A DNA stretch of 64,000 nt from Candidatus Doudnabacteria bacterium (lineage in GTDB: Bacteria > Patescibacteriota > Doudnabacteria > UBA920), in assembly GCA_963837465.1 (NCBI GenBank), contig CAWINB010000004.1, positions 330,853 through 394,852 of the forward strand, in the 5' to 3' direction. Position 1 is the first letter of the stretch. Each line of letters begins with the position of its first letter. This document shows positions 15,629-47,996 of this stretch, one piece after another. The notes under the pieces are model-generated. The model had not been told where the DNA came from. It saw nothing but the letters and a program-made list of their open reading frames with translations, and ran no database searches. Position numbers and translations under genes: made by a program.

Positions 15629-16293
15629 TGCTTGGCGGTTAGGAATTAAATCTTAACGTTTAAAACTTCAATAAACTTTTAGTTCAATTTTGCTCTTATG
15701 TAAGCGGGCATCGCTGATTATAGGAGATCCCTATTGGCACCTGGGAGACTGGACATTATCCACATTTAAGATGGATATGTTTTTTTTAGCCTCAATTTTA
15801 GACCCTTCAGGATCAAATTATAGAGGCTAATCCGCCGAAGCCTTGGCGAAGGCTGGATAACTAAGTTTGATCGCCGATAAATCGGCACGCTACGCCAATC
15901 ATCTTGGTCAAAGCAAAGTACCTCAAAATGAGATGCTCCGCTCCGCTCAGGATGCGTTCCTACGGAACTGTACCTTAACAGTTAAATAGTGATTAGAAAA
16001 CACTGAATACCGCCCGGTATTTAGTGTGTACAAAACCATCGCGTCTTGACCTATTTAAACCAGGTTGAGATGCAATGTTTGCGTCAATTCAATATGAGTT
16101 CAATGATATTCTGTGAATAACAGAAAAATGTTTTGTTAGGTTTACATTTTACAAAAATAAATCTAACGCCAACTTAACATCAATATTTATATTCGTGTTA
16201 AGAGGTTTGTCTTTTAGACAGATCAAACTTTCAATTTTATTTCCGTCCCGCCAAAGGCTGGGACAATTCAGGATTTATAATTGATTTCTAATA

Positions 16294-17860
<1,567 letters not shown>

Positions 17861-17872
<12 letters not shown>

Positions 17873-18137
17873 AAGGAACTTTTCTTGACTACACTGGTTT
17901 TCGAACTGTGTGTCAAGACATTCTGTTGGTCGTCGTCAATTATTTCGATTTTTGACGCAATCCTTTCTCAATAAGAAACGACGTAAACGTAAGTGGTTTT
18001 GTATAGCGGTAATTCTACCCATATTTAGCAATAAATATGGGCCTGAGCGCCTTTAATGCTCGGGGTCACTATTTAGCCGTTAAAAAACGGAAATTGCAAT
18101 TAAAAAGCCTGACTTCTACTACTGAAGTGAGGCTTTT
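17861..18137 (+). other. 16S tail + trailer + terminator segment, copy S-A
   Basis: gtcactatttagccgttaa (18065-18083) pairs 18/19 with the leader ttaacagttaaatagtgat (15975-15993). tggttttgta (17994-18003) pairs with the leader tacaaaacca (16029-16038). Terminator hairpin at 18107-18137. Confidence 0.75.
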
Positions 18138-19121
18138 ATGTTTTATAAGGAAAGTGTCGTAGAAACATCTACGAAAACCGACAGTAGGGTTTTGCCATCG
18201 TCCCCGGCTGTTTACAGCCCAAAGATGAGCGAGTTGGTTGATGGGTTTTTAAAGCACGGTCAGTTTGATTTAAGCTGGTCGGCTGGGACAGTCGCAAAAT
18301 ACGGTGAGTGTTTACGGATGACTATTCGGGACATCGGCGATTTGCCGGTAAATGAAATCCGTTTGGTTCACCTTACGGAATTAAAATCTAAAATAATAAT
18401 GCGCGGAGCCGGAGAGTCCAGAGTCGGCTCAATGGTTTTTGCGTTAAAAAGTTTTTTAAAATACTGCAAGGAAATTGTGGAGTTGGATGTGCTGGACTTT
18501 AACAAGATTACCCCGCCAAAACGCCATCGCCGGGAAGTGCTGTTTTTGACCAACGAAGAAATTCAGCGGTTTGTGGATGTTATAAAAATAAAAAATACCT
18601 GGGATGGGAAAAATAAAAAGAGTTGCGTCCGAATGGATGGTCTAAGGTTCAGGGCTTTGGTAGAAGTCTTGCTTGGCAGCGGTATGAGAATATCCGAGGC
18701 GTTATCGCTTAACCGGGGTAGTATAAATTTTGAAAAGAAAGAGGCAAAAATTATCGGTAAAGGTAGCAAGGAACGCACGGTATTTTTTAACGATCGTTCG
18801 TTGGAATGGGTTAGGTATTTATTGGAAGAAAGGAAGGACAGTCACGAACCTTTATTTCTTTCCCAAAAAGGCAACAGGTGGGATAAGGGAGAAGTTAATA
18901 AACTGTTTCAGCGTTATACTAAAAAAGCGGAAATCACCAAAAAATTAACGCCCCATATTCTGCGGCATACTATGGCCACAAACTTACTTTTTAACGGTTG
19001 CCCGATTTCCCACGTCAAAGAAATTTTAGGCCATGATAGGCTGGAAACCACGTGCCGCTACTATCTGGGTTTGGACAAGAGTAAGGCCAAGGAGGCTCAC
19101 GAAAAATTCTTGAATTATTAA
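18138..19121 (+). CDS. Tyrosine recombinase/integrase, class A (copy 1)
   Basis: GMRISEALSL (R), HILRHTMATN (H-x-x-R), LGHDRLETTCRYY (H and Y). 327 aa. Paralogs at 34943 and 47997. Confidence 0.9.
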   Translation: MFYKESVVETSTKTDSRVLPSSPAVYSPKMSELVDGFLKHGQFDLSWSAGTVAKYGECLRMTIRDIGDLPVNEIRLVHLTELKSKIIMRGAGESRVGSMVFALKSFLKYCKEIVELDVLDFNKITPPKRHRREVLFLTNEEIQRFVDVIKIKNTWDGKNKKSCVRMDGLRFRALVEVLLGSGMRISEALSLNRGSINFEKKEAKIIGKGSKERTVFFNDRSLEWVRYLLEERKDSHEPLFLSQKGNRWDKGEVNKLFQRYTKKAEITKKLTPHILRHTMATNLLFNGCPISHVKEILGHDRLETTCRYYLGLDKSKAKEAHEKFLNY

Positions 19122-19159: not shown

Positions 19160-19365
19160 TAGAATAATTGAATAGGTGCCTAACCCCATGGCTAAAACTA
19201 TGGGTATGGTAGAAGTAAAGAATCCTCAGCTACGTAAAGACGGTCTCTTAACCGCTCTCGTAGCTGAGGTGCGTGCGAAAGCATGCGGTGGTGTCGAAAG
19301 GCACTGCTGCGGTTGGGAGGCCCTTTTTGTATCCAACCGCAATTTAAAAACCTCAGCTACAACAA
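19160..19365 (+). ncRNA. Candidate structured leader RNA upstream of the type III mod gene
   Basis: tataat at 19154-19159. 11-bp perfect stem cctcagctacg (19224-19234) / cgtagctgagg (19259-19269). Two adjacent GAAA-capped hairpins (cgtgc gaaa gcatg, gtgtc gaaa ggcac). gcggttgg/ccaaccgc stem. A second cctcagctac at 19351-19360, 5 nt before the ATG. Confidence 0.35.
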
Positions 19366-21255
19366 ATGAATAACAAATCACTGATTTTTGAATTGCCCAA
19401 AATTGTGGAAGAGGGCAAAAAAGAAGTTGAAAAAATATTGGAACGGCTTTCCAGTCAAAGTCGGTTAGGTTTGCAGACTAATGAGCTGGTTCTACCGGCA
19501 AAAGATAGTGGCGGGCTTTTTCGCGGGCATATAGCAGAACAGAAAAACAATGAGTGGCTGAATCGCTTAATATATGGCGATAATTTGTTAGCTATGCAGG
19601 CTTTGCTTTCCGGCGATGAGCAGAGCGGTCTTGCCAGTATGCGTGGGAAAATAGATTTAATTTACATTGATCCACCGTTTGATAGCAAAGCTGACTACCG
19701 CACAAAGGTTACCTTGCCTGGCGTGGATTTGGAGCAAAAGCCAACAGTTATAGAACAATTTGCATACGCCGATACTTGGAAAGATGGCACCGTAAGCTAT
19801 TTGAAAATGCTTTATCCTCGTCTTGCTTTAATGCGCGAGTTGCTCTCCGAACAAGGCAGTATTTATGTGCATATTGATTGGCACGTCGGGCATTATGTAA
19901 AAATTTTACTTGATGATATTTTTGGAAAAAATAATTTTAGGAACGAAATAATTTGGTGGTATCTTTGGGGAGGAAGAGGTAAGACACAATGGAATAGCAA
20001 ACATGATAATATTTTATTTTATTCCAAGGATAATAATTGGATTTTTAACTTTAAGGATGTATTAGATGATCACAATTTAATGACAGAAGGGTCAAAAAAT
20101 AGGTTGAATTACAAAGGTGCGATGGTAACTACCAAAAGCGAATCCTCAGAAATACCCGAAGATAAAGTGCTGCCTTCTGATACTTGGTATATAGCAACCA
20201 TTAATGCAATGGCAAAAGAAAAATTAAATTATGGTACTCAAAAACCAGAATCTTTGGTAGAAAAAATAATCAAAGCATCTTCAAATGAAAATTCCATTGT
20301 AGCAGATTTTTTTGCGGGGAGCGGGACAACTGGAGCGGTGGCGGAAAAACTTGGACGGAGGTGGATTATGTCGGATATTGGCAAGCCAGCGGCTTTGATA
20401 ATGCGCAAACGGTTAATTGACCAAAACGCCAAACCGTTTTTGTATCAATCCATCGGCGACTACCAAAAAGAAGCGTTTACCTCCTCAAAGTTATACCGCC
20501 GGGTTGGCGACCTGGCCCAGGTGGTATTGCAACTTTACGGCGCAATCCCTTTTACAGAAGACCAAAGCCAAATGCGAAATTTGGGGTATATAAAAGACAG
20601 TAAAACTTTGGTAATGGTGGATTCGCCGAATAAAATGACCGGCCTTGCCACGCTTAAAAAAGCGCAGGAGCTTAAAGCCAGTTTTATGGGCGGATTTAAC
20701 AAAGTGGTGGTCTTGGGCTGGAATTTTACTTTTGATATTACCGAAGCTATTCATTCGCTTAACGATAAAAGCGTGGAAGTTTTAGTTATACCCCCGGATC
20801 TGTTAGATAAGTTAAAGAGCAAAGCTGATTACAAAGACTTGATTGACAGCGGTAAAATTCGTTTTTCCTCTTTGCAATATCTGACTTTAAAACCAATTAC
20901 GGTAAAAATATTGCCGGATGATAAAGAACAGTTGCATGTTGAATTAGATAATTATGTTTTACTTTCCCCAGACAACATACCTTTGGACGAAAAGGACAAG
21001 GAAAAATTAAAAGAAGTCATTGCTAAAGATCCATTGTCTTTGGTTGAATATTGGAGCATTGATCCCGATTATGACGGAGTTACTTTTCGCAGCCTATGGC
21101 AGGATTATCGGGAAAATGAAGACAATGACGCAGAGCCTTACCATGTTGTAAAATCGGTAGATTTGACTGTCCCCAAAAAGAAAGAAAAAAGAATTGTATG
21201 CGTAAAGGTCGTGGATGTTTTTGGTTTTGAAAGTATTGCGACCGAGGAAGTTTAA
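19366..21255 (+). CDS. mod: Type III restriction-modification methyltransferase (Mod)
   Basis: [11 protein letters not shown] (motif IV) precedes [20 protein letters not shown] (motif I). 629 aa, directly upstream of res. Confidence 0.85.
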
Positions 21256-21258
21256 CAT

Positions 21259-24171
21259 ATGCCATCACCAATCAGCATAGGCACAAGGGACATTCCCTTA
21301 AAACTTGCCAAGACAATTAGTGAGAAAGTAAATTTAGCTTGGGACAGTGGAGAGTTTTTAGACAAGACCACGGCCGTTACTCAAGATTTGCTAAAATTTT
21401 GGTTTACCGAACCACACATAGAAAACCGATATATTAATTTTCACTCCGGCCAGCGCCAGGCTATTTTAAACACCATTTATTTGCACGAAATTTTAAGCAC
21501 GAAGTCCGTTAAAGATATTTACGAGAACATAGAATTTGAACTGTTGCCGGAAATAGACATAGCCGAGCTAAAAAAGCCAAAATACGAAATTCCCAAATAC
21601 GCTATTAAGATGGCAACCGGGACGGGCAAAACATGGGTGATGCACGCCTTGTTAATTTGGCAATATCTAAACGCCAAATATGAAGCCCAAAAATCAGGAA
21701 AGTTTTCCAAGAACTTTTTATTAGTCGCCCCCGGCATAATCGTCTACGAACGGCTGCTGGATGCTTATTTGGGTAAGGAAAATGAAAATCGGGAACGCCA
21801 ATTTGAGCAATCTGATTTTTACCAGTTTAAGGATTTGCTCTTGCCTCCGGCCTTTAGGGAAGAATTTTTTGGCTTTATCCAGTCGGCCGTAGCCAAGAAG
21901 CAGGACATCGGCAGCAAGGTGACTGGTGACGGCCTGATCGCCATTGCCAACTGGCATTTATTTATGGGGGAAGAAGAATCGGAAGACAAACCCGTTTCGC
22001 CATTAGACAGTCCACAACAAATCCTCAAAGACATCATGCCAATTCGGCCGGGAGTATCCGGCGGCAATTCTTTGGATGCTTTAGATAGTGCCTATTGGGG
22101 CGGCAAGGAATTGGATTATTTGGCCAATTTGCCGGATTTAGTTTGTATAAATGACGAGGCACACCACATCCACGAAAATAAAACCTACGGGGAAGTCAGC
22201 GAGGTGGAATGGCAAAAGAGCTTGAATAAAATTGCCGCCTCCAAAGGCCATAAATTCATGCAGATAGATTTTAGCGCCACCCCTTACGACGTAACCGGCA
22301 GCGGGCAAAATCGTATCAAGCATTACTTTCCCCACATCATTGTGGATTTTAAGCTAAAGACGGCCATAGACGGCGGCTTTGTAAAGACCATAGCCATAGA
22401 CAAGCGCAAGGAACTTGTGGATTTGCCTTTAGACTTTAAATCGGTACGGGACGAAAACAATACCGCTATTGCGCTCTCGGACGGGCAAAAGCTGATGATC
22501 CGTGCCGGATTAAATCGATTAAAAATTCTTGAAACGGAATTTGTTAAATTCACTAAAGATGCCGATGGGGTTTCCAATAAATATCCCAAAATGTTGATCA
22601 TGTGCGAGGATACTAAAGTTACGCCATTGGTTGAGGCTTTTTTTCTGGACGAAGGCTTAAGCGAGGACGAGGTGCTTCGGGTAGATTCCAATAAAAAAGG
22701 CGAGATACCGGAAACGGAATGGAGAGAACTTAAACAAAAATTATTTAATATTGATAAGCATGATAAGCCTAAAGTTATTATTTCCGTGCTCATGTTGCGT
22801 GAGGGTTTTGACGTAAATAATATCTGCGTTATTGTCCCGTTGCGTTCGTCCGCCGCCCCGATTTTGCTGGAACAGACTATTGGCCGTGGTTTGCGGCTGA
22901 TGTGGCGGGAGCCGGAATATCGTGAAGCCAAAATGGACAATATCCGGCAATTGATAAAAGAAAAACGGGAACCGCAAAACTTGCTGGACTTGCTGTTTAT
23001 TGTTGAGCATCCGGCGTTTTTGCAATTCTATGAGGATTTAGACAAAGAAAGCATCGTAGAAGTTGGTGACATACCAGAGGGAGGGGTGTTGGGGGAAATT
23101 ATTAAGGTTGGCTTAAAACCCGACTGGCAAAAATATGATATGTATTGGCCGATCATCTTGCGTGATGCGGAAGATGAAATGTCCGGCAGCCGTCCGCCGG
23201 TTGAAAAAATGGAAAAATTTACCGTTTATGCGTTGGAAGATTTAAAGAAGTTTTTTCATAAAGGCGGCGAAAAATTCGTGTCCGAGGAGTTAACCGTTAA
23301 AACCCGTTTTGGGGAGTACATGGTAGATGCCAGCCTGTTTACTTCCCAAAGCTATAATGAGTATTTGCAGAAAATAATCCACGCAGTAGTCAATAGGACG
23401 GCGAAGACAAGTGCACGTGGGCATAAAGTTTACCCGACGTTACAAATAAACCAACTGCAATTAGTTGAAGCTTTGGATTTTTATATCCGCAATCTGTTGT
23501 TTGGTAACTCATATGACCCGTTTGTTGATAATAATTGGAAAGTGCTTTTACTGAAGAATGGCGTTGTTACCCAGCATATCGTCAAAGAGGTGGGCAAACT
23601 AATTTTTGAAATGCAGAATAACACTACCACGAGCGAGGCATTGGTAGAAAAGCGCCATTTTGCCGAAGTGGACAGTTTGAGGATGAGGGAAAATTATTCC
23701 TTGCCGATTGTAAAAACTATTTACGAAAGATTGCGCTACCCTTCTAACAAAGGCGGTTTTGAAAAAGACTTTTTAAGCTATGCGGATGGCGACGGGCAGG
23801 TGGAGGCGATAATTAAAATCGAAGAATACCAGCACACCTTTGCCGTTATCAACTATATGCGTTCCGATGGTTTTCTCGCCCAATACCACCCGGACTTTTT
23901 AGTGCAGGCGGTCAATAAAATCTATGTTATTGAAACAAAAGCCGACAAAGACATTGACGATAAAAATGTCCGGCAAAAGCAGCTGGCTACGCTGGATTGG
24001 ATTAAGCGGATCAACGGGTTAAAAACCGAAGACAGATTAAAAAAAGAATGGGAATATGTTTTGCTAGGTCAAAGCAATTTTTACGGTTTAAGCAAAAACG
24101 GGGCTTCCATAACTGAAATTTGCGAATTAGCCAAGGTTAGCGAGGCTGCGGTGACCGGCAGGCTACTTTAG
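21259..24171 (+). CDS. res: Type III restriction enzyme Res subunit (helicase-nuclease)
   Basis: Walker A MATGTGKT, DEAH box NDEAHHI, helicase C motifs (VLMLREGFDV, QTIGRGLR). 970 aa. Confidence 0.85.
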   Translation: MPSPISIGTRDIPLKLAKTISEKVNLAWDSGEFLDKTTAVTQDLLKFWFTEPHIENRYINFHSGQRQAILNTIYLHEILSTKSVKDIYENIEFELLPEIDIAELKKPKYEIPKYAIKMATGTGKTWVMHALLIWQYLNAKYEAQKSGKFSKNFLLVAPGIIVYERLLDAYLGKENENRERQFEQSDFYQFKDLLLPPAFREEFFGFIQSAVAKKQDIGSKVTGDGLIAIANWHLFMGEEESEDKPVSPLDSPQQILKDIMPIRPGVSGGNSLDALDSAYWGGKELDYLANLPDLVCINDEAHHIHENKTYGEVSEVEWQKSLNKIAASKGHKFMQIDFSATPYDVTGSGQNRIKHYFPHIIVDFKLKTAIDGGFVKTIAIDKRKELVDLPLDFKSVRDENNTAIALSDGQKLMIRAGLNRLKILETEFVKFTKDADGVSNKYPKMLIMCEDTKVTPLVEAFFLDEGLSEDEVLRVDSNKKGEIPETEWRELKQKLFNIDKHDKPKVIISVLMLREGFDVNNICVIVPLRSSAAPILLEQTIGRGLRLMWREPEYREAKMDNIRQLIKEKREPQNLLDLLFIVEHPAFLQFYEDLDKESIVEVGDIPEGGVLGEIIKVGLKPDWQKYDMYWPIILRDAEDEMSGSRPPVEKMEKFTVYALEDLKKFFHKGGEKFVSEELTVKTRFGEYMVDASLFTSQSYNEYLQKIIHAVVNRTAKTSARGHKVYPTLQINQLQLVEALDFYIRNLLFGNSYDPFVDNNWKVLLLKNGVVTQHIVKEVGKLIFEMQNNTTTSEALVEKRHFAEVDSLRMRENYSLPIVKTIYERLRYPSNKGGFEKDFLSYADGDGQVEAIIKIEEYQHTFAVINYMRSDGFLAQYHPDFLVQAVNKIYVIETKADKDIDDKNVRQKQLATLDWIKRINGLKTEDRLKKEWEYVLLGQSNFYGLSKNGASITEICELAKVSEAAVTGRLL

Positions 24172-26425: not shown

Positions 26426-26502
26426 GGCAATTAGGTTGCTGCCTTGGGATCTGGTTTGCTCATAGAGGGGTTATCCTGAAACCGGGCAGCACCCTAATTG
26501 CC
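26426..26502. repeat. Long hairpin upstream of the 393-aa ORF
   Basis: ggcaattaggttgctgcc (26426-26443) pairs 17/18 with ggcagcaccctaattgcc (26485-26502). The loop is 41 nt. Confidence 0.6.
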
Positions 26503-26524
26503 TCTAAATAATCAAAATCCCTCT

Positions 26525-27703
26525 ATGATGATTGACAGTATACGTCTAAGAATTTCTATATTTAGTAGCGTGAAAAATAACTTCTTTTTTAGAGAAAAAA
26601 GAGGGAGCCTTGATTATGATAATAGTAATAGACAGAGGGTTAAACAATTTATACGAACCAATTTTAAGTGGAGCGAACAACAACGGTCTCAGGGTAAATA
26701 TATCCCAAAATATTGGACAGAAACCAACAGCTTTGAGGGCGGTAAACAGTATCTTATTTTTGAATTTTCAGTTCCAAAGTTCTTGCAGGGACATAATTTA
26801 GTCGAAATTGCAGAAACCATGCTGCCTGTCTTGGTGGATCGTCTCGAGGACTTCTGTAAAATAATTCAACTATCAGTTGCGGAGGTAGATATTTTGGGTG
26901 CGCAAGTCACGATGGTCGCATATTGTCATAATGTTCCGATAGCCCATCTGGCTCCTTCGCAAGAAGTTATGAAATTGTTATCTGGATATACCTATCGTTT
27001 TCGTTCTAAATTTCGGCCCGAGCAAAATGAATTGGGACAGATTACTCATTTACAACTCGGTAATAATACTTCCCATGTTACTGCTTATGATAAGTTGCCG
27101 GAGATTATAGTGCATGCCCGAACTACTGAGGAATTGGAAATTGCCAAAATAATTAAAAATAAACAGTTGCCAAATCCTTACGGAAAAATTATTCAAGACA
27201 CCATTAGGTTTGAGCTCACTTTACATAATACTGTGTCGGTAAGGCAAGCAATGAAAAAATTTTATGGTGACAAGCCTTTTTACACACTCAAGGATGTGTT
27301 CAAAGCCGATATTGCGGCGGCATTATTAAAGTTGGAAATGGAGGAAATTTATAATCACCCCCTTAAAAATATAGCTGCAAATTCTAATTATGACTTCCGA
27401 AAACTAAATGATGAGGTCGGTAAATTTATTCGAGACCGCCATCAGGACGGCAAACTGATTGGCTTGCTGGAACAGGCCACCCTTGTTCTACACGCCGGGG
27501 GCTGGGCGGCGGTCAGAACTTATTTAGCGAAAGGTTGTTGCCGCCGGACTTTGCAATACCGGATAGCTGAACTACGCGAAATAGAAAAAATTGGAATTAA
27601 TTTGGGAACGCCAAATGAAAAAATTATGGAATATATTTTAAACCAATTTGGCATTGGAAAAACTAATTTACTTCCTAAAGGCCAACAATTATTGTTTAGC
27701 TAA
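26525..27703 (+). CDS. Hypothetical protein (weak suspicion of a replication initiator)
   Basis: 392 aa. The N-terminus MMIDSIRLRI recalls the MIDW... start of gene II/X-type replication proteins. I could confirm no catalytic motif. Confidence 0.4.
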   Translation: MMIDSIRLRISIFSSVKNNFFFREKRGSLDYDNSNRQRVKQFIRTNFKWSEQQRSQGKYIPKYWTETNSFEGGKQYLIFEFSVPKFLQGHNLVEIAETMLPVLVDRLEDFCKIIQLSVAEVDILGAQVTMVAYCHNVPIAHLAPSQEVMKLLSGYTYRFRSKFRPEQNELGQITHLQLGNNTSHVTAYDKLPEIIVHARTTEELEIAKIIKNKQLPNPYGKIIQDTIRFELTLHNTVSVRQAMKKFYGDKPFYTLKDVFKADIAAALLKLEMEEIYNHPLKNIAANSNYDFRKLNDEVGKFIRDRHQDGKLIGLLEQATLVLHAGGWAAVRTYLAKGCCRRTLQYRIAELREIEKIGINLGTPNEKIMEYILNQFGIGKTNLLPKGQQLLFS

Positions 27704-27916: not shown

Positions 27917-28885
27917 ATGAGCCAGTTTAACCAAAACCCAGATCCTAATTTTATACAGCAGCCATCTGCTCCGGTTTTAGGTTTGCCGGTCGTAAATACC
28001 CCACAGCTTTTGACCTTTGAACAGTTGATCCCGTTGTTTGGCGATTACGTCACTTACGATTTGAATCATAGTCCTAAGACATCCAAAAAGTATGTCGAGG
28101 GGTTAAGGCATATTTTGAAAGACCTACCCTTTATAGTTTACCCCCAAGACTTAACGTTGCCGCATATTACGGAACTGAAGAAAAAAGTGCAGTTGCGTGG
28201 CGCAAAAGAGTCCCGAGTTAATAGTCTACTATTCTCATTGCGAAAATTTTTAACCTATTGTAACGAAGTCTATAAACTGGTTACAATAAATCCAAAGGAA
28301 ATTAAAGTTATGCGATTACCAAAAAGGGAAGTGGTGTTTTTGGCTCCTGCCGAAATTGAGCAATTTTTAAGCGCAATGGATACAACAACTTTGCCGGGAT
28401 TACGAATACGGACGCTTGTAGAGGTGCTACTTTCCACTGCTATGCGAATTTCCGAAGCCCTGTCGGTCAGCCGTGGGGACATTGACTGGGAGGGCAAGGA
28501 AATTGTCATTATAGGGAAAGGCAATAAGCAGCGGACGGTATTTTTAAGCGATAGGGCAATCGGTTGGCTTCAAACCTATTTACTCCGGCGTAAGGATAAT
28601 GACCCTGCTTTGTTCGTAACCTTTGGCGAACCCAAACGCTTGTCGCCTTATGACTTGTCTAAGCAGTTTAAGCACTATGCTGAAAAAGCAGGATTAAAGA
28701 AAAAAGTAACACCCCATATTTTACGCCATACGGCCGCGACAACCATGTCCCATAACGGCGCGGACATTCGTAACATTCAGCTAATTTTAGGCCATAGCGA
28801 CATTAAAACAACCGCCAAATATTACTTAGGCGTGGACAAAGAGGCTTTAAAGGAAGCCCATAAAAAGTTTCTAAAATACGATTAG
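27917..28885 (+). CDS. Tyrosine recombinase/integrase, class B (copy 1)
   Basis: AMRISEALSV, HILRHTAATTM, LGHSDIKTTAKYY. Its closest paralogs are at 39633 and the fragment at 48956-49412. Confidence 0.9.
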   Translation: MSQFNQNPDPNFIQQPSAPVLGLPVVNTPQLLTFEQLIPLFGDYVTYDLNHSPKTSKKYVEGLRHILKDLPFIVYPQDLTLPHITELKKKVQLRGAKESRVNSLLFSLRKFLTYCNEVYKLVTINPKEIKVMRLPKREVVFLAPAEIEQFLSAMDTTTLPGLRIRTLVEVLLSTAMRISEALSVSRGDIDWEGKEIVIIGKGNKQRTVFLSDRAIGWLQTYLLRRKDNDPALFVTFGEPKRLSPYDLSKQFKHYAEKAGLKKKVTPHILRHTAATTMSHNGADIRNIQLILGHSDIKTTAKYYLGVDKEALKEAHKKFLKYD

Positions 28886-28962: not shown

Positions 28963-28991
28963 TTGACAGAAGCCATAAAATCAGGTATAAT
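28963..28991 (+). promoter_or_regulatory. Consensus promoter upstream of the DGR target gene
   Basis: TTGACA (28963-28968), a 17-nt spacer, TATAAT (28986-28991). Confidence 0.55.
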
Positions 28992-29128: not shown

Positions 29129-29806
29129 ATGACGCCAATGGAAACCCCGTTGACCGTATCCACTAACAATCCCCGAGAAGGCAAACAGGGCCGGAAGTTG
29201 TATTACCGGCTCAAAACCTCAATTAAGAAATCCGGATTATTAATTGTAGCGCTTCAACCCGCGCTTGAGTTCCCCGGCACAGCGATGGAAGACGACATCG
29301 CGGCTATCTTGGTAAAGTATTCCAAGATGGCTCGTGGCATCGTTACTCCCGTCCGCGCCGAGGACACCGGCCTCATGCCCCAGGGCTATTCGGTATACCT
29401 CACGCCGCAGGGCGTTCGCAAGGATCGTCTGGAAGGCGACGTCGAGCTGGCTAATGTCGACTACATCTGCCCGTTGCGGGATGATGATGGCGACTATATC
29501 GGCGGCGAGGTAATGCTCCAGCGGTCGGTCGAACTCAAGGCCATCGGTAGCCTCGGCTACGCTTTCGCGCTTCTCAAGGCGCAGGAGCAAGGGAAGGAAA
29601 TCTTTCCTGTCGAGTCGCGCGGCAAGCATTATTTCATTATGCCGCTCACCGAGCTGCTCGGTGACGACCGTGGCCGCCGCGTGGCTTGCTTCGGCTGGCA
29701 CGGCAAGTCGCTGCGTTGGGTGCTCTTCTTCCGTTGGGTCGGCGGCGTCTTCGCTCGCCGCGGTCGGTTTGTTGTTCCCCGCGAGAAGAAGCCCTCGGTC
29801 GCTTAG
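29129..29806 (+). CDS. DGR variable (target) protein
   Basis: 225-aa ORF whose last ~50 codons are the variable repeat. The C-terminus ...ACFGWHGKSLRWVLFFRWVGGVFARRGRFVVPR parallels the TR-encoded ...AYFNWNDKSQRWVLNFNWVDNNFNRNDRFVVPR. Confidence 0.85.
   Translation: MTPMETPLTVSTNNPREGKQGRKLYYRLKTSIKKSGLLIVALQPALEFPGTAMEDDIAAILVKYSKMARGIVTPVRAEDTGLMPQGYSVYLTPQGVRKDRLEGDVELANVDYICPLRDDDGDYIGGEVMLQRSVELKAIGSLGYAFALLKAQEQGKEIFPVESRGKHYFIMPLTELLGDDRGRRVACFGWHGKSLRWVLFFRWVGGVFARRGRFVVPREKKPSVA
29654..29782 (+). repeat. DGR variable repeat (VR)
   Basis: 129 nt aligning without gaps to 30148-30276. By my hand alignment there are 26 differences, all at template adenines. Confidence 0.9.
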
Positions 29807-29853
29807 TCCCTCGGCTCTGCCGCTGGGTTCTGGACTCTTGGCGCTTCGCATTG

Positions 29854-29894
29854 CCCCGCATTTTGACTTCGGTCAGGATGCGGGGTGTTTTTTT
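29854..29894 (+). terminator. Terminator after the DGR target gene
   Basis: ccccgcat...atgcgggg stem with an inner tgac ttcg gtca, followed by a T7 run. Confidence 0.7.
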
Positions 29895-30147
29895 GTCCAA
29901 AATTTTGAAAGTTTGGTATAATTTAAGTAGATGGGATTTATGCCTGCGGTTAAGGCTTCAGGTGACCACATCTCGCATTGTTAAAAAACCAGAGTATCGG
30001 CGGCTACGGTTTCCGGTAGAGTGTTTTTTAACAAATCTTAAAAAGAAGATACTCGGTGCAAAGTATTGGCGGGCTTTAAGGCCCCAAATAAAATACAACC
30101 CCAAGAGTATTCAAGGGGTGGTGGCTTGGAATATACTTTGCATAATC

Positions 30148-30276
30148 CTGCTCGATGACAACCGTAACCGCAACGTGGCTTACTTCAACTGGAACGACAA
30201 GTCGCAGCGTTGGGTGCTCAACTTCAATTGGGTCGACAACAACTTCAATCGCAACGATCGGTTTGTTGTTCCCCGC
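30148..30276 (+). repeat. DGR template repeat (TR)
   Basis: Rich in AAC/AAT codons. Identical to the VR except at adenines. The last 19 nt (tcggtttgttgttccccgc) are A-free and identical in both copies. Confidence 0.9.
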
Positions 30277-30644
30277 TATTGTCTTCTTACTCCTCCCACA
30301 ACGGGAGGAGTTTCTTTTAATAACTGCCGCTGCCAGCCGCCAAACATTTTACCCGCGTCAACCAGAGGTGTTGAAATATCACTAAATTGTTTATTGTCTA
30401 AGGCTTTTAACTCCCAAGCCAATTGTAGGAAGTATTTAAGGGTATCAAGTTTAATGCTTGCCTTTTGAATTAAGATTGACTTGCTATCCCTTGAGGTAAA
30501 GCCCGCTGTCAGCGTTAGTTCAATAACATCGGTGAACAGGACATTGATTTTTTCAGCCAAGGAGTATTTTACCAGCTTGGGCAGGTGTGGCAGGTAGTTG
30601 TGCCAGAGTTTGTAAGCATCGGTAATTTTTTGTAATACCGGCAA
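30276..30644 (-). CDS. avd: Avd-like four-helix-bundle accessory protein
   Basis: 122 aa. The pattern KITDAYKLWHNYLPHLPKLVKYSLAEKI...LDTLKYFLQLAWELKALDNKQF fits the four-helix-bundle (23S-IVS protein/Avd) family. On the opposite strand to the TR and RT. Confidence 0.7.
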   Translation of the reverse strand: MPVLQKITDAYKLWHNYLPHLPKLVKYSLAEKINVLFTDVIELTLTAGFTSRDSKSILIQKASIKLDTLKYFLQLAWELKALDNKQFSDISTPLVDAGKMFGGWQRQLLKETPPVVGGVRRQ

Positions 30645-30662
30645 GTTGATAAAATTTCCGTT

Positions 30663-30673
30663 GGGGGGGGGGG
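30663..30673. repeat. G11 homopolymer between the avd and RT starts
   Basis: ttgggggggggggttg, counted as 11 G. Confidence 0.9.
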
Positions 30674-30703
30674 TTGTTAAAAGTCATTTTTATAAGTTTA
30701 ATT

Positions 30704-31717
30704 ATGAAAACGCAATTAAAAATAAGTTACGAGGAAATCATTTCACTCGAAAATTTGTTTGCCGCCTGGCAGGAGTTTTTGCCGGGCAAGAGAAAAAAGA
30801 AAGACGTGCAGGAATTTGGCCTTAGGCTTGCTGATAACATTTTACAGCTTCAGGAGGAACTTGCCAATTTTAGCTATATCCACGGCCCATACAAGGCCTT
30901 TAACATTTCTGACCCCAAGCCGAGGAATATCCATAAGGCAAGCGTTCGGGACAGAGTTTTACATCACGCCATTTACCGCAAACTATATCCGTTTTTCGAC
31001 AAAACTTTTATCGGCAGTTCGTATTCCTGCCGTTTGGACAAAGGAGTTCACAAGGCTTTGAATAAGTTTAGGGCATTGGCGTTTAAAGCAAGTAAAAATC
31101 ATACGCAAACAGCTTGGGTGCTCAAGTGTGATATTAAAAAGTTTTTCGCCAGCATTGACCATGCAAAACTGCTGAAAATTTTATCAGCTTACGTTCCCGA
31201 TAAAAATATTCTTTGGGTTTTAGAGCGAATTATTTATAGCTTTGATTATAAGGTAGCAGGCCGCGGCCTCCCGCTTGGCAACCTGACCTCCCAATTATTT
31301 TGCAACGTATATATGAACGAATTTGACCAATTCATAAAACACAAACTCAAGGCCAAATATTATATCCGTTATGCTGATGATTTTGTTTTTTTATCGGGTA
31401 GCAAGGACGAGCTAATATCCTTAGTTCCTAAAGTAGCCGAGTTTTTAGGAGAGGACTTAAAACTGTCTTTGCATCCGGATAAAGTTTTTATAAAGACCTT
31501 GGCCTCGGGCGTGGACTTCCTGGGCTGGGTGCATTTCCCTCATTACCGGGTTCTAAGAAAAAATACCGGCAGAAGAATGTTCAAACGAATTTACGGCCAT
31601 CCAACAAATGAAACATTCCAGTCATATTTAGGGTTAATGAGCCACGGAAATACTTACGGGCTTAAACAAAAATTGTTGAATTGGTATGGGTTACTTAAAA
31701 CAGCACAGCAGGAATAG
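30704..31717 (+). CDS. DGR-type reverse transcriptase
   Basis: RT motifs including LPLGNLTSQLFCNVYMNEFD (the DGR-typical GxxxSQ) and YADDFVF. 337 aa from the ATG at 30704. Confidence 0.9.
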   Translation: MKTQLKISYEEIISLENLFAAWQEFLPGKRKKKDVQEFGLRLADNILQLQEELANFSYIHGPYKAFNISDPKPRNIHKASVRDRVLHHAIYRKLYPFFDKTFIGSSYSCRLDKGVHKALNKFRALAFKASKNHTQTAWVLKCDIKKFFASIDHAKLLKILSAYVPDKNILWVLERIIYSFDYKVAGRGLPLGNLTSQLFCNVYMNEFDQFIKHKLKAKYYIRYADDFVFLSGSKDELISLVPKVAEFLGEDLKLSLHPDKVFIKTLASGVDFLGWVHFPHYRVLRKNTGRRMFKRIYGHPTNETFQSYLGLMSHGNTYGLKQKLLNWYGLLKTAQQE

Positions 31718-31786: not shown

Positions 31787-32242
31787 TTACCGACTGACGT
31801 AGGCGAACTGGCCTTCCTGCACCGGCTTGCGTTCGGTAGCGCCGACCAGCGAAGCGACAGTCATGCGCATACCCACCGGCAGATTTTGGAGGAGTGTGGC
31901 ATGGCCGCCTTTGAAGCGGATTGCATCGCGGTAGTTGTTGACCCGCTCGCTGAGCTGATCGAACGTCGCTTCCTGCGGTTTTCCATTGCCTTTGTTGAGA
32001 TTCAACTTGGCTCCGGGTGGAACGCAGATGGCGCAGACAACGGGCGGGTTATTGCTGGTGACAGCTTGTTTGATTTTAGCCACCACACCCGTTTCATTAC
32101 GAACCGACTGCCACGCCTGAAAGGCGTTTAAGTCAGCTACGGAGGCCAGACCGATTGTGCCTGTGCCGAAGCGGTGAGTAACGAGTTCCTCACCCTCTTG
32201 AGCCAGACGGTTATTGACTCCCATCAAGGAGTAGTCGCACAT
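31787..32242 (-). CDS. Hypothetical protein in a G+C-rich patch
   Basis: I prefer the start at MCDYSLMG, which has agaggg 9 nt upstream. Composition is visibly more G+C-rich than the surroundings. Confidence 0.45.
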   Translation of the reverse strand: MCDYSLMGVNNRLAQEGEELVTHRFGTGTIGLASVADLNAFQAWQSVRNETGVVAKIKQAVTSNNPPVVCAICVPPGAKLNLNKGNGKPQEATFDQLSERVNNYRDAIRFKGGHATLLQNLPVGMRMTVASLVGATERKPVQEGQFAYVSR

Positions 32243-32549
32243 AGGGTTAAACCCTCTTTCCAATTGGATTTTCAAGGTCATGACAGCACCATGAATTATC
32301 CAAATCATAAACGAACAGAGAGAGAGAGAGTCAATAGAGGATTTTTTATGCAAGGTCGCTAAAAAAATTGATTTTTGCTAAAATATAGTAAACACTACGG
32401 GTCGATTTATAAAAAATTTATGCCGGACTATAATCACCTGCTTGTAACAACCCAAGCTAAAAGCAAAAGGCCAAAATGGTGGTGGATAGTAATTGTTATT
32501 TTTGCAGTTTTGATAGTAATTGTGCTATTAAAAAAATAATTTTATAACT

Positions 32550-33200
32550 ATGGAAACTGAAACCCGTTCTACCCCCCCCCATACCTCTTCCGAGAACCCA
32601 GACACTTGGGTCAAAGACACCACCCAAGCTATGAGGAAGCCTGGCGGCAGGGACTTGGCCGACTACAAGGAATTTTTAGGATTTACCGAAAATGAGCTTG
32701 CAGGCAAGACAATTTTAGATTTGGGTTCGGGTTCAAAAGAAAAATTATCACGCCAGCTAAAGGAAGCCGGCGTTGTTGCTAATGTAGTTAGTCTGAACCC
32801 GGATTATACCATTCCTAAGTATAGGCGCATTATAAACAACGAGGAAGACTGGCAGAAAAAATCCGTAGCCGCCTTAGCCCAAAGCCTGCCTTTTAAGGAT
32901 GGCAGCTTTGACAGTGTTTTATCTTTGGAAGCCATAACGATGTATGAGGATGCTTTTGAAAAACCGGACAGTGCCAAAAAATGGGCGGCAGAAATAGCAA
33001 GGGTCTTAAAACCCGGCGGCGAAGCAAGGCTGGGAGAAATTTTGGGTTTCAAAGGTGAACTAAAGCAACAGGCTTGGCAGGAGCTGGTTAGGCTTTTTGC
33101 GGATTTAGGCGTAGAGGCAAGAATTGAGCAATTTAAAATCAGGGAAACAAACCCGATGCCGAGATTTAGGTTGGTTCTGAAAAAATCTTTAATCCAATAA
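32550..33200 (+). CDS. Class I SAM-dependent methyltransferase with a C9 tract in codons 8-10
   Basis: ILDLGSGSKE (motif I), FDSVLS, LKPGGEARL. The C9 run is at 32572-32580. Confidence 0.65.
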   Translation: METETRSTPPHTSSENPDTWVKDTTQAMRKPGGRDLADYKEFLGFTENELAGKTILDLGSGSKEKLSRQLKEAGVVANVVSLNPDYTIPKYRRIINNEEDWQKKSVAALAQSLPFKDGSFDSVLSLEAITMYEDAFEKPDSAKKWAAEIARVLKPGGEARLGEILGFKGELKQQAWQELVRLFADLGVEARIEQFKIRETNPMPRFRLVLKKSLIQ

Positions 33201-33725: not shown

Positions 33726-34040
33726 ATGGATTTCATATTAAACAATTTTGAGGGTTTTGAGTGGGATGAGGGGAACGAACAAAAGAGCTTTTTGAAACAT
33801 GGCATTACGCCATTGGAAGCGGAAGAAGCATTTTTTAACCCCAATTTTATATCAGCTGATCCTGTCCATAGCCAGAGCGAAAAGCGTTACCGCTTATTGG
33901 GCAGAACTAACAGTAGTAAAGTTTTAATAATAGCTTTTACAATAAGAAGTAACAAAGCGAGAGTTATCTCTTCGCGATTAGCCAATAAAAAAGAAAGGAC
34001 ATTATATGACCAAGCAGTTAAAGCCAATTCCCAAATTTAA
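33726..34040 (+). CDS. brnT: BrnT-family (DUF497) toxin
   Basis: FEWDEGNEQKSFLKHGITPLEAEEAF is the BrnT signature. Confidence 0.8.
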   Translation: MDFILNNFEGFEWDEGNEQKSFLKHGITPLEAEEAFFNPNFISADPVHSQSEKRYRLLGRTNSSKVLIIAFTIRSNKARVISSRLANKKERTLYDQAVKANSQI

Positions 34041-34272
34041 GACTGAAGCCGAAGAAGCCAAGTTTTGGAATAGCCACGACTCTACCCAGTATATTGACTG
34101 GTTAAAAGCCCCGCGTGGCGTTTTTCCTAACCTAAAACCATCTTCTCAATCTGTTTCACTTCGCATTCCAGCCAACATATTAGCTCGCATTAAAGTGCAA
34201 GCCAATCAGTTAGACGTGCCTTATCAATCTTTGATGAAGCAGTATATTGCTAACGGTGTAATGAAGAATTAA
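34006..34272 (+). CDS. brnA: BrnA-family antitoxin
   Basis: Overlaps brnT. EEAKFWNSHDSTQYIDW plus a C-terminal ribbon-helix-helix-like segment. Confidence 0.75.
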   Translation: MTKQLKPIPKFKTEAEEAKFWNSHDSTQYIDWLKAPRGVFPNLKPSSQSVSLRIPANILARIKVQANQLDVPYQSLMKQYIANGVMKN

Positions 34273-34662: not shown

Positions 34663-34679
34663 CACCTCCTTTCTAAGGA
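34663..34679 (+). repeat. att core copy 2 (cacctcctttctaagga)
   Basis: 17/17 identical to the 16S 3' tail at 17861-17877. Confidence 0.85.
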
Positions 34680-34942
34680 ATAAATATGCAGCCTTAAACT
34701 TTTCGAAGTTTATGTTGTTGCACATTCCAGTGGTCGTCATCTTCTATTTCGATAGAAGGTGCACATACTCTAACGATTGAACGTAAACGAACGGTTTTGT
34801 AAAAGGTAATTCTACCCTTATTTTCGCAAGATTATAAGGAGTCTCAACGCCTTAAATGTTGGGAGTCACTATTTAGCCGTTAAGGGAACTTAACGAAATT
34901 GCAAATAAAAGCCTCGTCATCAGCAATGATAACGAGGTTTTT
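34663..34942 (+). other. 16S tail + trailer + terminator segment, copy S-B
   Basis: Shares ggtcgtc, acgtaaacg, ggttttgta, ggtaattctaccc, gtcactatttagccgtta and gaaattgcaa with S-A. UUCG hairpins at 34696-34711 and 34741-34758. Terminator at 34912-34942. Confidence 0.75.
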
Positions 34943-35929
34943 ATGTATGAGGTTAATTCGGTAGAAAGAGTCGCAAAAGGTGGAATTGCGGCGACAGTCA
35001 GCCCCGCCGCTCCTATCGGCACAAAGATTAGCACTTTGGTGCCGCAATTCTTGGCTTATGGCCAGTATGACCTGTCCTTTGCCGCAGGCACCATAGAGAA
35101 ATACCGCGATAGCCTAAACGTCTTTATGCGGGACGTTGGGGATTTGCCCGTAGAGGAATTAAACTTTGGGCATTTTACTTTGCTGAAACAAAAAATTATG
35201 GAAAGGGGGTCGGGGGTCTCACGCATAGCGGGCGTGGTCTTTGCGATGAAAAGTATGTTAAAGTTTGCTACCGACGTATTGGAGATGCAGATTTTGGATT
35301 ATAAGAAAATCAGAGCGCCGAAGCGGCGCAGGCGGGACGTAGTTTATTTAACCAATGCCGAAATCCAGCAGTTCGTTGACAGCATAAAGTTTGAAAAATG
35401 CTGGACGGGCAATACCCGTAAAAAGGGCATCAGCGTCCACCGCCTGAGGTTTCGGACTTTGGTTGAAGTCTTGCTTGGCACGGGGATGCGTATAAGCGAA
35501 GCATTGTCGCTTACAAGGGATGTTATAAACTTTGAAAAAGGCGAGGCTAAGATAATCGGCAAAGGAAGCAAGGAGCGCACAGTGTTTTTTAACGAACGGG
35601 CTTTGTATTGGATTAAGTTTTATTTGGAACAGAGAAACGACGACAATCCCGTTATATTTTTAAACCGAAAAGGCAAGCCGCTGGACAGGGGCGATGCCGA
35701 TACTTTGTTTAAGCGTTACGCAGAAAGGTCAGGTATAACTAAAAAATTAACGCCGCACATTTTGCGGCACACGATGGCGACGAATCTGCTTTTTAACGGA
35801 TGCCCGATTGGCCATATTAAGGAAATCCTCGGACACGACCGATTAGAGACAACTTGTCGTTATTATTTGGGCTTAGACAAAGATAAAGCTAAAGAAGCCC
35901 ACGGCCAATTTTTAAATTACGAACAATAA
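34943..35929 (+). CDS. Tyrosine recombinase/integrase, class A (copy 2)
   Basis: GMRISEALSL, HILRHTMATNLLFNGCPI, LGHDRLETTCRYY. Confidence 0.9.
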   Translation: MYEVNSVERVAKGGIAATVSPAAPIGTKISTLVPQFLAYGQYDLSFAAGTIEKYRDSLNVFMRDVGDLPVEELNFGHFTLLKQKIMERGSGVSRIAGVVFAMKSMLKFATDVLEMQILDYKKIRAPKRRRRDVVYLTNAEIQQFVDSIKFEKCWTGNTRKKGISVHRLRFRTLVEVLLGTGMRISEALSLTRDVINFEKGEAKIIGKGSKERTVFFNERALYWIKFYLEQRNDDNPVIFLNRKGKPLDRGDADTLFKRYAERSGITKKLTPHILRHTMATNLLFNGCPIGHIKEILGHDRLETTCRYYLGLDKDKAKEAHGQFLNYEQ

Positions 35930-47720: not shown

Positions 47721-47737
47721 CACCTCCTTTCTAAGGA
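47721..47737 (+). repeat. att core copy 4 (cacctcctttctaagga)
   Basis: 17/17 identical to the 16S 3' tail. Confidence 0.85.
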
Positions 47738-47996
47738 ACAATATGCACCCTTTTCCCTTTTCGAAGGGGAATGTTGGTTCACATTCCGTAGGTCGTCGTT
47801 AATTTTTTCGAAAATTAGCGCACTTCTTGAAACTTCAAAGAACGACGTAAACTGGTGGTTTTGTAACGGTAATTCTACCGTATTTAGCAATAAATACGGC
47901 CTAAGCGCCATTAATGCTTGGGATCACTATTTAGCCGTTAAAGGTTAAACACGAAATTGCAAAGAAAGTCTCGGCCGTTATGGTGCGAGGCTTTTT
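47721..47996 (+). other. 16S tail + trailer + terminator segment, copy S-C
   Basis: UUCG hairpins at 47754-47769 and 47800-47817. ggttttgta, ggtaattctacc and atcactatttagccgttaa are conserved. Terminator at 47967-47996. Confidence 0.75.

Follow-up and report, generated by a model that had tools for sequence, protein, structure and literature searches.

A locus on a contig of a Candidatus Doudnabacteria genome (CAWINB010000004.1, assembly GCA_963837465.1), at positions 29129-31717 of the 64,000-nucleotide (nt) stretch analysed here (the window), raises the question of whether it is a complete diversity-generating retroelement (DGR) and, if so, how its template RNA is made and its mutagenic machinery controlled. 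An initial annotation of the window had described all the parts of such an element: a target gene ending in a variable repeat (VR), a template repeat (TR), an accessory gene (avd) and a reverse transcriptase (RT). All of these are present, and the open reading frames (ORFs) of target, avd and RT are all intact. The locus adds one more DGR to a type known from the candidate phyla radiation (CPR), with a target family that is unannotated. In our judgement it is highly probable that it represents an intact DGR of the CPR layout termed B3, served by the mechanism proposed below (a discrete TR RNA and a G-tract switch) and carried in an element at the end of the 16S rRNA gene.

The repeat pair, the protein genes and the target

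The alignment of VR and TR runs over 129 nt without a gap and contains 26 differences, all of them at adenines of the TR (17 A>G, 5 A>C and 4 A>T). Of the 31 TR adenines, 5 are unchanged in the VR, and the 98 non-adenine positions are the same in both copies; by chance, 26 differences would all fall on 31 adenines among 129 positions with a probability of 1.4e-22. Our re-alignment thus reproduced exactly the repeat pair and the adenine-only differences reported in the initial annotation, and brought up no difference at a non-adenine position, the observation which that annotation had named as speaking against a DGR. The same pair was also recovered independently by a repeat finder, and no second VR was found when both strands of the window were searched. 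Adenines occupy 28% of the first, 44% of the second and 0% of the third codon positions of the TR. The final 19 nt of the TR (TCGGTTTGTTGTTCCCCGC, 30258-30276) are free of adenine and the same in the VR, and the homology of the two copies stops right after them, as had been noticed before. This end is similar to the initiation of mutagenic homing (IMH) element, matching IMH/IMH* pairs of which have been reported for some DGRs.

Could these differences be the trace of past activity, left by a machinery that is now off or dead? The DGR cassette does sit in a mobile element alongside other cargo, which would suit a silent relic. Decay, however, would add random changes, and there is not one non-adenine difference in the 129 nt; the three ORFs are intact, and each of the conserved RNA elements described below is found in the window. 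Moreover, in a sister lineage with a target of the same family, represented by four contigs with identical RT and identical TR (L093-L096; VR at 271-394 in L093), the VR of L094 differs from that of L093, L095 and L096 at a single TR-adenine position; L094 also has 9 G instead of 7 in the repeat tract discussed below. We regard a silent relic as improbable and an intact DGR as the better description of the locus.

The RT matches RVT_1 and contains the two motifs that had been pointed out in it, LGNLTSQ and YADD. The first of these fits the signature (I/V/L)GxxxSQ found in RT domain 4 of DGR reverse transcriptases (PMC3521204). Homologues of this RT number in the thousands, the closest being in metagenome-assembled genomes of Doudnabacteria and other Patescibacteria (60-77% identical), and the nearest ones are located in DGR cassettes. 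Among solved structures, the best relative is a 328-residue chain named "Reverse transcriptase" in the 8ub7 series (151 bits, as compared to about 73 bits for group II-like RTs), which we take to be the RT of the Bordetella phage (bRT). That the RT instead belongs to a retron, a group II intron or a defence system, and that the repeat pair is a chance duplication next to it, appears extremely improbable. Some sources do label its homologues "retron-type", and the top NCBIfam match is a group II intron RT model (141.9 bits, far under the cutoff of 300; the scan returned no DGR RT family), but the RT has the SQ motif of DGR RTs, Avd and an adenine-only TR/VR pair adjoin it, and Pfam and Rfam scans of the window found neither a maturase or endonuclease domain nor an intron RNA.

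The opposite-strand gene previously called Avd-like scores above the Pfam gathering threshold for bAvd, and its stop codon (30276-30278), which had been said to abut the end of the TR, shares the last TR base. A point against this assignment is the score of its product with the NCBIfam model DivGenRetAVD (64.2 bits), which is under the cutoff of 80; a sequence search of the PDB with Avd gave no match.

The gene order had been considered unusual in the initial annotation. This claim fails because the same layout, TR-(avd)-RT with parentheses denoting the reverse strand, has been published as architecture B3 and accounts for 90% of CPR DGRs (Wu et al. 2018, PMC5758913), and because our survey of related loci agrees: avd was found directly upstream of the RT and on the opposite strand in 73 of the 74 loci with an Avd match. 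A strict scan for adenine-only TR/VR pairs, applied to those loci with at least 1250 nt of upstream sequence (n=64), retrieved such a pair in 61; in these related loci the distance from the VR to the downstream TR is about 390-630 nt (440-500 nt in most cases), and the TR borders on the 3' end of avd. The gene order is therefore the published norm for CPR, and the locus is typical of its clade. It shares with other CPR B3 DGRs the identical order and strands, the VR at the 3' end of a small target and the TR abutting the 3' end of avd; unlike CPR B3 DGRs in general, it resides within a 16S-end integrative element and has a target from a small family without a Pfam domain.

Scans of the target protein against both Pfam and NCBIfam found no domain. 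Its 63 homologues are all without a name, several being encoded on the same contigs as RTs of the clade of the window's RT; L002 and L006 are the only related loci in which the family is present, apart from a partial and weak match in L053. The database copy of the protein starts at Met4 and has 222 residues. AlphaFold models reach predicted local distance difference test (pLDDT) scores of 90.0 (full-length protein) and 94.9 (residues 69-225), and the confidently modelled C-terminal part of about 155 residues, whose last 43 structured residues are encoded by the VR, shows its closest resemblance to C-type lectin-like domains. For the C-type lectin fold expected in the initial annotation, the signal is weak but consistent, and a Foldseek search against the PDB returned no match. 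The model would be consistent with a very divergent, minimal lectin-like fold, as would suit a DGR target. Comparison of the homologues with the window gives 5-26% identity for the 19 VR codons that face TR adenines, as compared to 67-96% for the other VR codons and 57-89% for the rest of the protein. Only the codons facing adenines are hypervariable across the family, so that diversification is concentrated on exactly those sites at which the TR contains an adenine.

The target gene also stands out by its composition, with 59% GC as compared to 43% for the window, and in codons 67-175, upstream of the VR, A occupies 6% of the third positions as compared to 25-33% in neighbouring genes. High GC is common to the close homologues of the target in L002 (9% third-position A) and L001 and is not found in L006; an unannotated ORF of the window (31787-32353, minus strand) is likewise GC-rich.

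Table 1. Positions in the window of the DGR components, of the RNA and regulatory elements around them, and of other genes in the same integrative element.
Feature	Position	Strand	Description
Target gene	29129-29806	+	225 aa; N-terminal helical part and C-terminal lectin-like domain ending in VR
VR	29654-29782	+	Codons 176-218 of the target (225 codons)
TR	30148-30276	+	31 adenines, 0 at third codon position
avd	30276-30644	-	122 aa, TTG start; Pfam bAvd 44.8 bits, gathering score 40
DGR reverse transcriptase	30704-31717	+	337 aa; RVT_1 match; LPLGNLTSQ, YADD
Promoter-like site, target gene	28963-28991	+	TTGACA-17-TATAAT, 12/12 consensus matches; putative function
Terminator-like hairpin and T-run after target gene	29852-29897	+	16-pair stem, then TTTTTTTG
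Promoter-like site, TR RNA	29893-29922	+	TTGTCC-18-TATAAT with TG extension (extended -10)
Structured leader of TR RNA	29924-30147	+	224 nt, six helices
Leader helix P1	29942-29963	+	
Leader helix P2a	29987-29989 with 30023-30025	+	
Leader helix P2b	29995-30018	+	
Long-range helix, 5' strand	30043-30051	+	AAGAAGATA; pairs with TR 3' flank; just 5' of P3
Leader helix P3	30056-30067 with 30132-30143	+	
Leader helix P4	30071-30084	+	
Leader helix P5	30098-30119	+	
Long-range helix, 3' strand	30280-30288	+	TGTCTTCTT; 9 nt in TR 3' flank
Hairpin and T-tract after TR	30289-30321	+	ACTCCTCCC-ACAAC-GGGAGGAGT, then TTCTTTTAAT; from terminator scan; terminator-like and candidate Avd-binding stem-loop
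Poly-G tract	30663-30673		11 G in 59-nt divergent avd-RT spacer; candidate slippage-prone switch
N6/N4 DNA methylase and ResIII helicase	19366-24171		Restriction-modification-like cargo of 16.8-kb element
Rolling-circle Rep-like gene	26498-27703		Pfam Phage_CRI; upstream of DGR target
Second Xer-like tyrosine integrase	27917-28885		Directly upstream of DGR target
Methyltransferase ORF	32550-33200		Cargo of 16.8-kb unit
BrnT/BrnA (BrnT/CopG-type) toxin-antitoxin pair	33726-34272		Cargo of 16.8-kb element

The template-repeat RNA

The promoter-like site of the TR RNA lies 226 nt upstream of the TR in the window, and its TGnTATAAT block is kept in an alignment of 58 loci, in which the distance from the -10 element to the TR has a mode of about 225 nt. 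On the other side of the TR, a 9-bp, GC-rich hairpin begins 12 nt past the repeat and is followed by a T-tract; 57 of 63 related loci have such a hairpin and T-tract past their TR, in most cases at a distance of 9-16 nt, as compared to 16% of random windows. Because of this hairpin and T-tract, and of the conserved promoter about 225 nt upstream, the TR RNA looks like a separate short transcript and not a TR-RT co-transcript. A hairpin akin to the terminator-like one after the target gene follows the VR in 50 of 64 loci, and it could also act as a target-side hairpin with an inferred role in homing.

The initial annotation had proposed that TR and RT share one transcript running antisense through avd, and under that model the hairpin after the TR would be an RNA-protein contact and not a 3' end. 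TR and RT are indeed on the same strand and 428 nt apart, no strong RT promoter is seen in the 59-nt spacer between avd and RT, and in the Bordetella phage TR and brt are adjacent and the RNA that is needed reaches 140 nt beyond the TR. Nevertheless, the plus-strand hairpin and T-tract recur past the TR far more often than in random windows, the conserved structured RNA is 5' of the TR and not 3' of it, and the convergent orientation of avd and TR, seen in 73 of 74 loci, would make every full read-through run into avd transcription. We give the co-transcript little credence, and consider a separate TR RNA in what follows.

Covariation among related loci strongly supports the six helices in the leader of this RNA. 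In an alignment of 43 sequences, 39 of the 43 leader pairs show compensatory changes; 94.9% of the cells are paired, as compared to 39-52% when the partners are slid by 1-3 columns, and the covariation score is 0.849, as compared to 0.12-0.22 in controls, with none of 500 shuffles reaching the observed values. Beyond these local helices, the leader pairs with the 3' flank of the TR. An unconstrained minimum free energy (MFE) fold of 29930-30322 joins the two strands of this long-range helix and regains P1, P2, P3 and the hairpin in the same structure. Since the MAFFT alignment of the leader segment and TR 3' flank shifted the 3' strand of the window by three columns, we judged the long-range helix by alignment-free permutation and not by column pair counts. 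The duplex energy of true partners was -6.83 kcal/mol, as compared to -4.46 +/- 0.28 kcal/mol for permuted ones (0 of 1000 permutations reached it), and the longest complementary run was 7.37 as compared to 6.27 (0 of 200 reached it). In other loci the two strands change together, for example to AAATAAACA/TGTTTATTT, AAGTGAG/CTCACTT or AAATACA/TGTATTT.

At gathering thresholds, Rfam gave no match in the DGR region of the window and no RT motif in 16 related loci, and the leader is therefore not in a curated family. Below threshold, it shares a AUAAAAUACA...GG.GGU core with RT-16 (RF03019; score 31.5, gathering 50) and a CCAGAGU...AGAGUG hairpin with RT-7 (RF03028; score 24.9, gathering 116.8). 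The RT motifs were found beside RT genes, and their authors speculated about a role in DGRs for all but RT-10 (Weinberg et al. 2017, PMC5737381). The present comparison, which covers about 75 relatives, provides a covariation-supported secondary structure, located 5' of the TR, for the non-coding RNA of the commonest CPR DGR layout.

How does this RNA relate to the one that has been dissected in the Bordetella phage BPP-1? There, cis-primed reverse transcription needs an RNA composed of 20 nt of avd, the TR and a spacer of 140 nt (Handa et al., PMC6182149; bioRxiv 10.1101/2023.10.23.563531). The spacer contains an Avd-binding stem-loop just 3' of the TR, a priming adenosine paired to the TR 3' end, a thumb ring and a stem-loop that binds bRT, and it forms a duplex with the avd segment upstream. 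Stem-loops after the TR together with upstream-downstream duplexes were reported for 207 of 278 Avd-containing DGRs, CPR included, in an analysis that took in 40 nt ahead of the TR and 100 nt past it (Handa et al.). The DGR of BPP-1 (mtd-avd-TR-brt) and that of the window each have Avd, an RT with the SQ motif, mutagenesis confined to adenines and a target whose tip is, or in the window seems to be, lectin-like. In both, a stem-loop closely follows the TR on its 3' side, and a duplex links sequence from before the TR to sequence from beyond it. The hairpin after the window's TR fits the Avd-binding stem-loop, and the long-range helix agrees with the idea of a duplex that brackets the TR. The two RNAs differ in that the large structured part is 5' of the TR in the window and 3' of it in BPP-1; unlike in BPP-1, only about 45 nt lie past the TR before the terminator-like T-tract, and a three-helix domain of about 90 nt separates the TR from the 5' strand of the long-range helix. 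The RNA 29930-30322 offers a concrete construct for asking whether the priming mechanism of Bordetella carries over to these elements.

The repeat tract between avd and the reverse transcriptase gene, and a proposed mechanism

The short spacer between the divergent avd and RT genes contains a poly-G tract. A run of 7-14 G (mode 10) is found in 66 of 72 related avd-RT spacers, and in five others the position of the poly-G is taken by (CT)n, (GT)n or (GA)n; all 67 runs of at least 8 G or C in 603 kb of related loci fall within the avd-RT spacer. The length of the tract varies between otherwise identical sequences. Ten contigs from different samples, with identical RT and flanks, have 10, 11, 11, 14, 11, 12, 11, 10, 11 and 11 G, and seven contigs of a second lineage, again with identical flanks, have 7, 9, 7, 7, 7, 7 and 8 G. 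A conserved repeat site, an interchangeable repeat type and a polymorphic length suggest a slippage-prone contingency tract, and since the tract lies in a divergent control region, we hypothesize that it switches avd, RT or both on and off.

A rather unlikely alternative, to which we nonetheless give more weight than to the others considered here, is that the poly-G is a fixed promoter or 5' untranslated element, acting as a protein-binding or structural signal, and that the differences in its length are assembly noise. Homopolymers are error-prone in sequencing, two scaffolds (L036 and L081) end at or near the tract, and the CCGTT ahead of it is also conserved. A fixed element accords less well with the replacement of poly-G by dinucleotide repeats in five loci, which means that repetitiveness and not sequence is conserved, with lengths of 10-14 in one lineage and 7-9 in another next to identical flanks, or with the confinement of all long G/C runs to the spacer.

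Simple-sequence repeats in divergent promoters are a known means of phase variation, as in the (TA)n tract between hifA and hifB of Haemophilus influenzae. The window's spacer resembles such a switch in having a slippage-prone tract in a short stretch between divergent genes, with a length that is polymorphic among otherwise identical sequences of its relatives; unlike hifA/hifB, it is known from the sequence of an uncultivated host, and the genes that flank it are themselves a mutagenesis machine. Limited full-text literature searches brought up neither a paper that connects DGRs with tracts of this kind nor a description of the structured leader. As to how the tract could act, we can only speculate that TATAAG at 30691-30696 would give a leaderless RT mRNA, or that 11 G would set a 17-nt spacer between TTTCCG and TAAAAG.

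Two further simple repeats in the window might be slippage switches: a run of 9 C (32572-32580) in the first codons of the methyltransferase ORF, and an (AG)7 repeat (32317-32330) in the 5' region of the GC-rich ORF at 31787-32353.

Taken together with what is known from the Bordetella phage DGR, these elements can be arranged into a proposed mechanism. The TR would be transcribed from the extended -10 promoter as a separate RNA of about 390 nt, consisting of the 224-nt leader, the TR, the strand that pairs back to the leader, and the hairpin with a U-tract as its end. An RT-Avd complex would bind this RNA, with the hairpin serving as the Avd-binding stem-loop, and the leader would take over, with the parts in a different order, those functions in RT binding and priming for which the phage RNA uses sequence 3' of its TR. 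A conserved ACUYGG junction, which follows 30051 beside the long-range helix and is a candidate for the priming site, would come to lie against the TR 3' end, much as in retron RNAs, and a complementary DNA with misincorporation at adenines would then replace the VR. Finally, avd and RT would be transcribed divergently from the 59-nt spacer, in which the tract of 11 G would change in length by slippage and so probably switch the machinery on and off.

Whether CPR-type DGRs in general, the window's included, combine a rearranged RNA (a 5' leader of 220 nt for binding and priming, joined to the 3' flank of the TR by the long-range helix, and a terminator-like end) with a stochastic poly-G or dinucleotide switch is a proposal that we make tentatively, with the chances slightly below even. 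The leader, the long-range helix and the tract are observed directly, the functions given to them being proposed ones. Several points weigh against the mechanism set out above. Its transcript ends, the part of the leader in priming and the switching through the G-tract are all read from sequence only. The avd frame crosses the hairpin on the opposite strand, so that the last 15 or so Avd codons are encoded antisense to it, and the T-tract also codes for lysines in the Avd tail; a coding constraint could therefore add to the conservation of the hairpin. Homopolymer lengths in assembled contigs may include sequencing error, and in the 59-nt spacer we found no convincing -35/-10 pair for either RT or avd.

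If the general proposal is true, a hypermutation system is itself under hypermutable control. The slippage-prone tract is nearly universal in the clade and its length varies between otherwise identical contigs; if it gates expression, this would explain how organisms with tiny genomes limit the cost of a mutagenic reverse transcriptase, and tract length would be linked to VR diversity.

The integrative element at the 16S rRNA gene

The 16S rRNA gene of the window (16287-17870) is intact, and the 18 nt of its 3' end (CACCTCCTTTCTAAGGAA) occur as a direct repeat at 17861-17878, 34663-34680 and 47721-47738, where 0.1 occurrences would be expected. Behind each of the first two copies come about 250 nt of DNA that is similar at the two sites, and a tyrosine integrase (18138-19121 and 34943-35929, respectively). 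The arrangement suggests that integrative elements of 16.8 kb and 13 kb have inserted in tandem at the 3' end of the 16S gene. The DGR is located in the first unit of 16.8 kb, which is bounded by copies of the 16S 3' end and, with its tyrosine integrase, agrees with the 16S-targeting integrative unit described in the initial annotation. The other cargo of this element is listed in Table 1.

Directly upstream of the DGR target there is a second integrase, preceded by a Rep-like gene, and the DGR could form part of a smaller mobile unit nested within the larger one. A homologous target on contig P0012 also has an integrase directly upstream. We considered whether an integrase and 16S-end context is general for the RT clade and rejected this, an integrase being near only 3 of the related loci; the exact 16S-end motif is in none of the related loci. 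On one other Patescibacteria contig (L022; 1-541 and 2327-2843), the 3' part of a 16S gene lies 1.8 kb upstream of the VR of its DGR, and a few lineages may share such a 16S-end location. In addition, the window contains two matches to the LOOT RNA (Rfam RF03000) above the gathering score, at 689-802 and 19177-19305, the second of which is just past the integrase of the first element.

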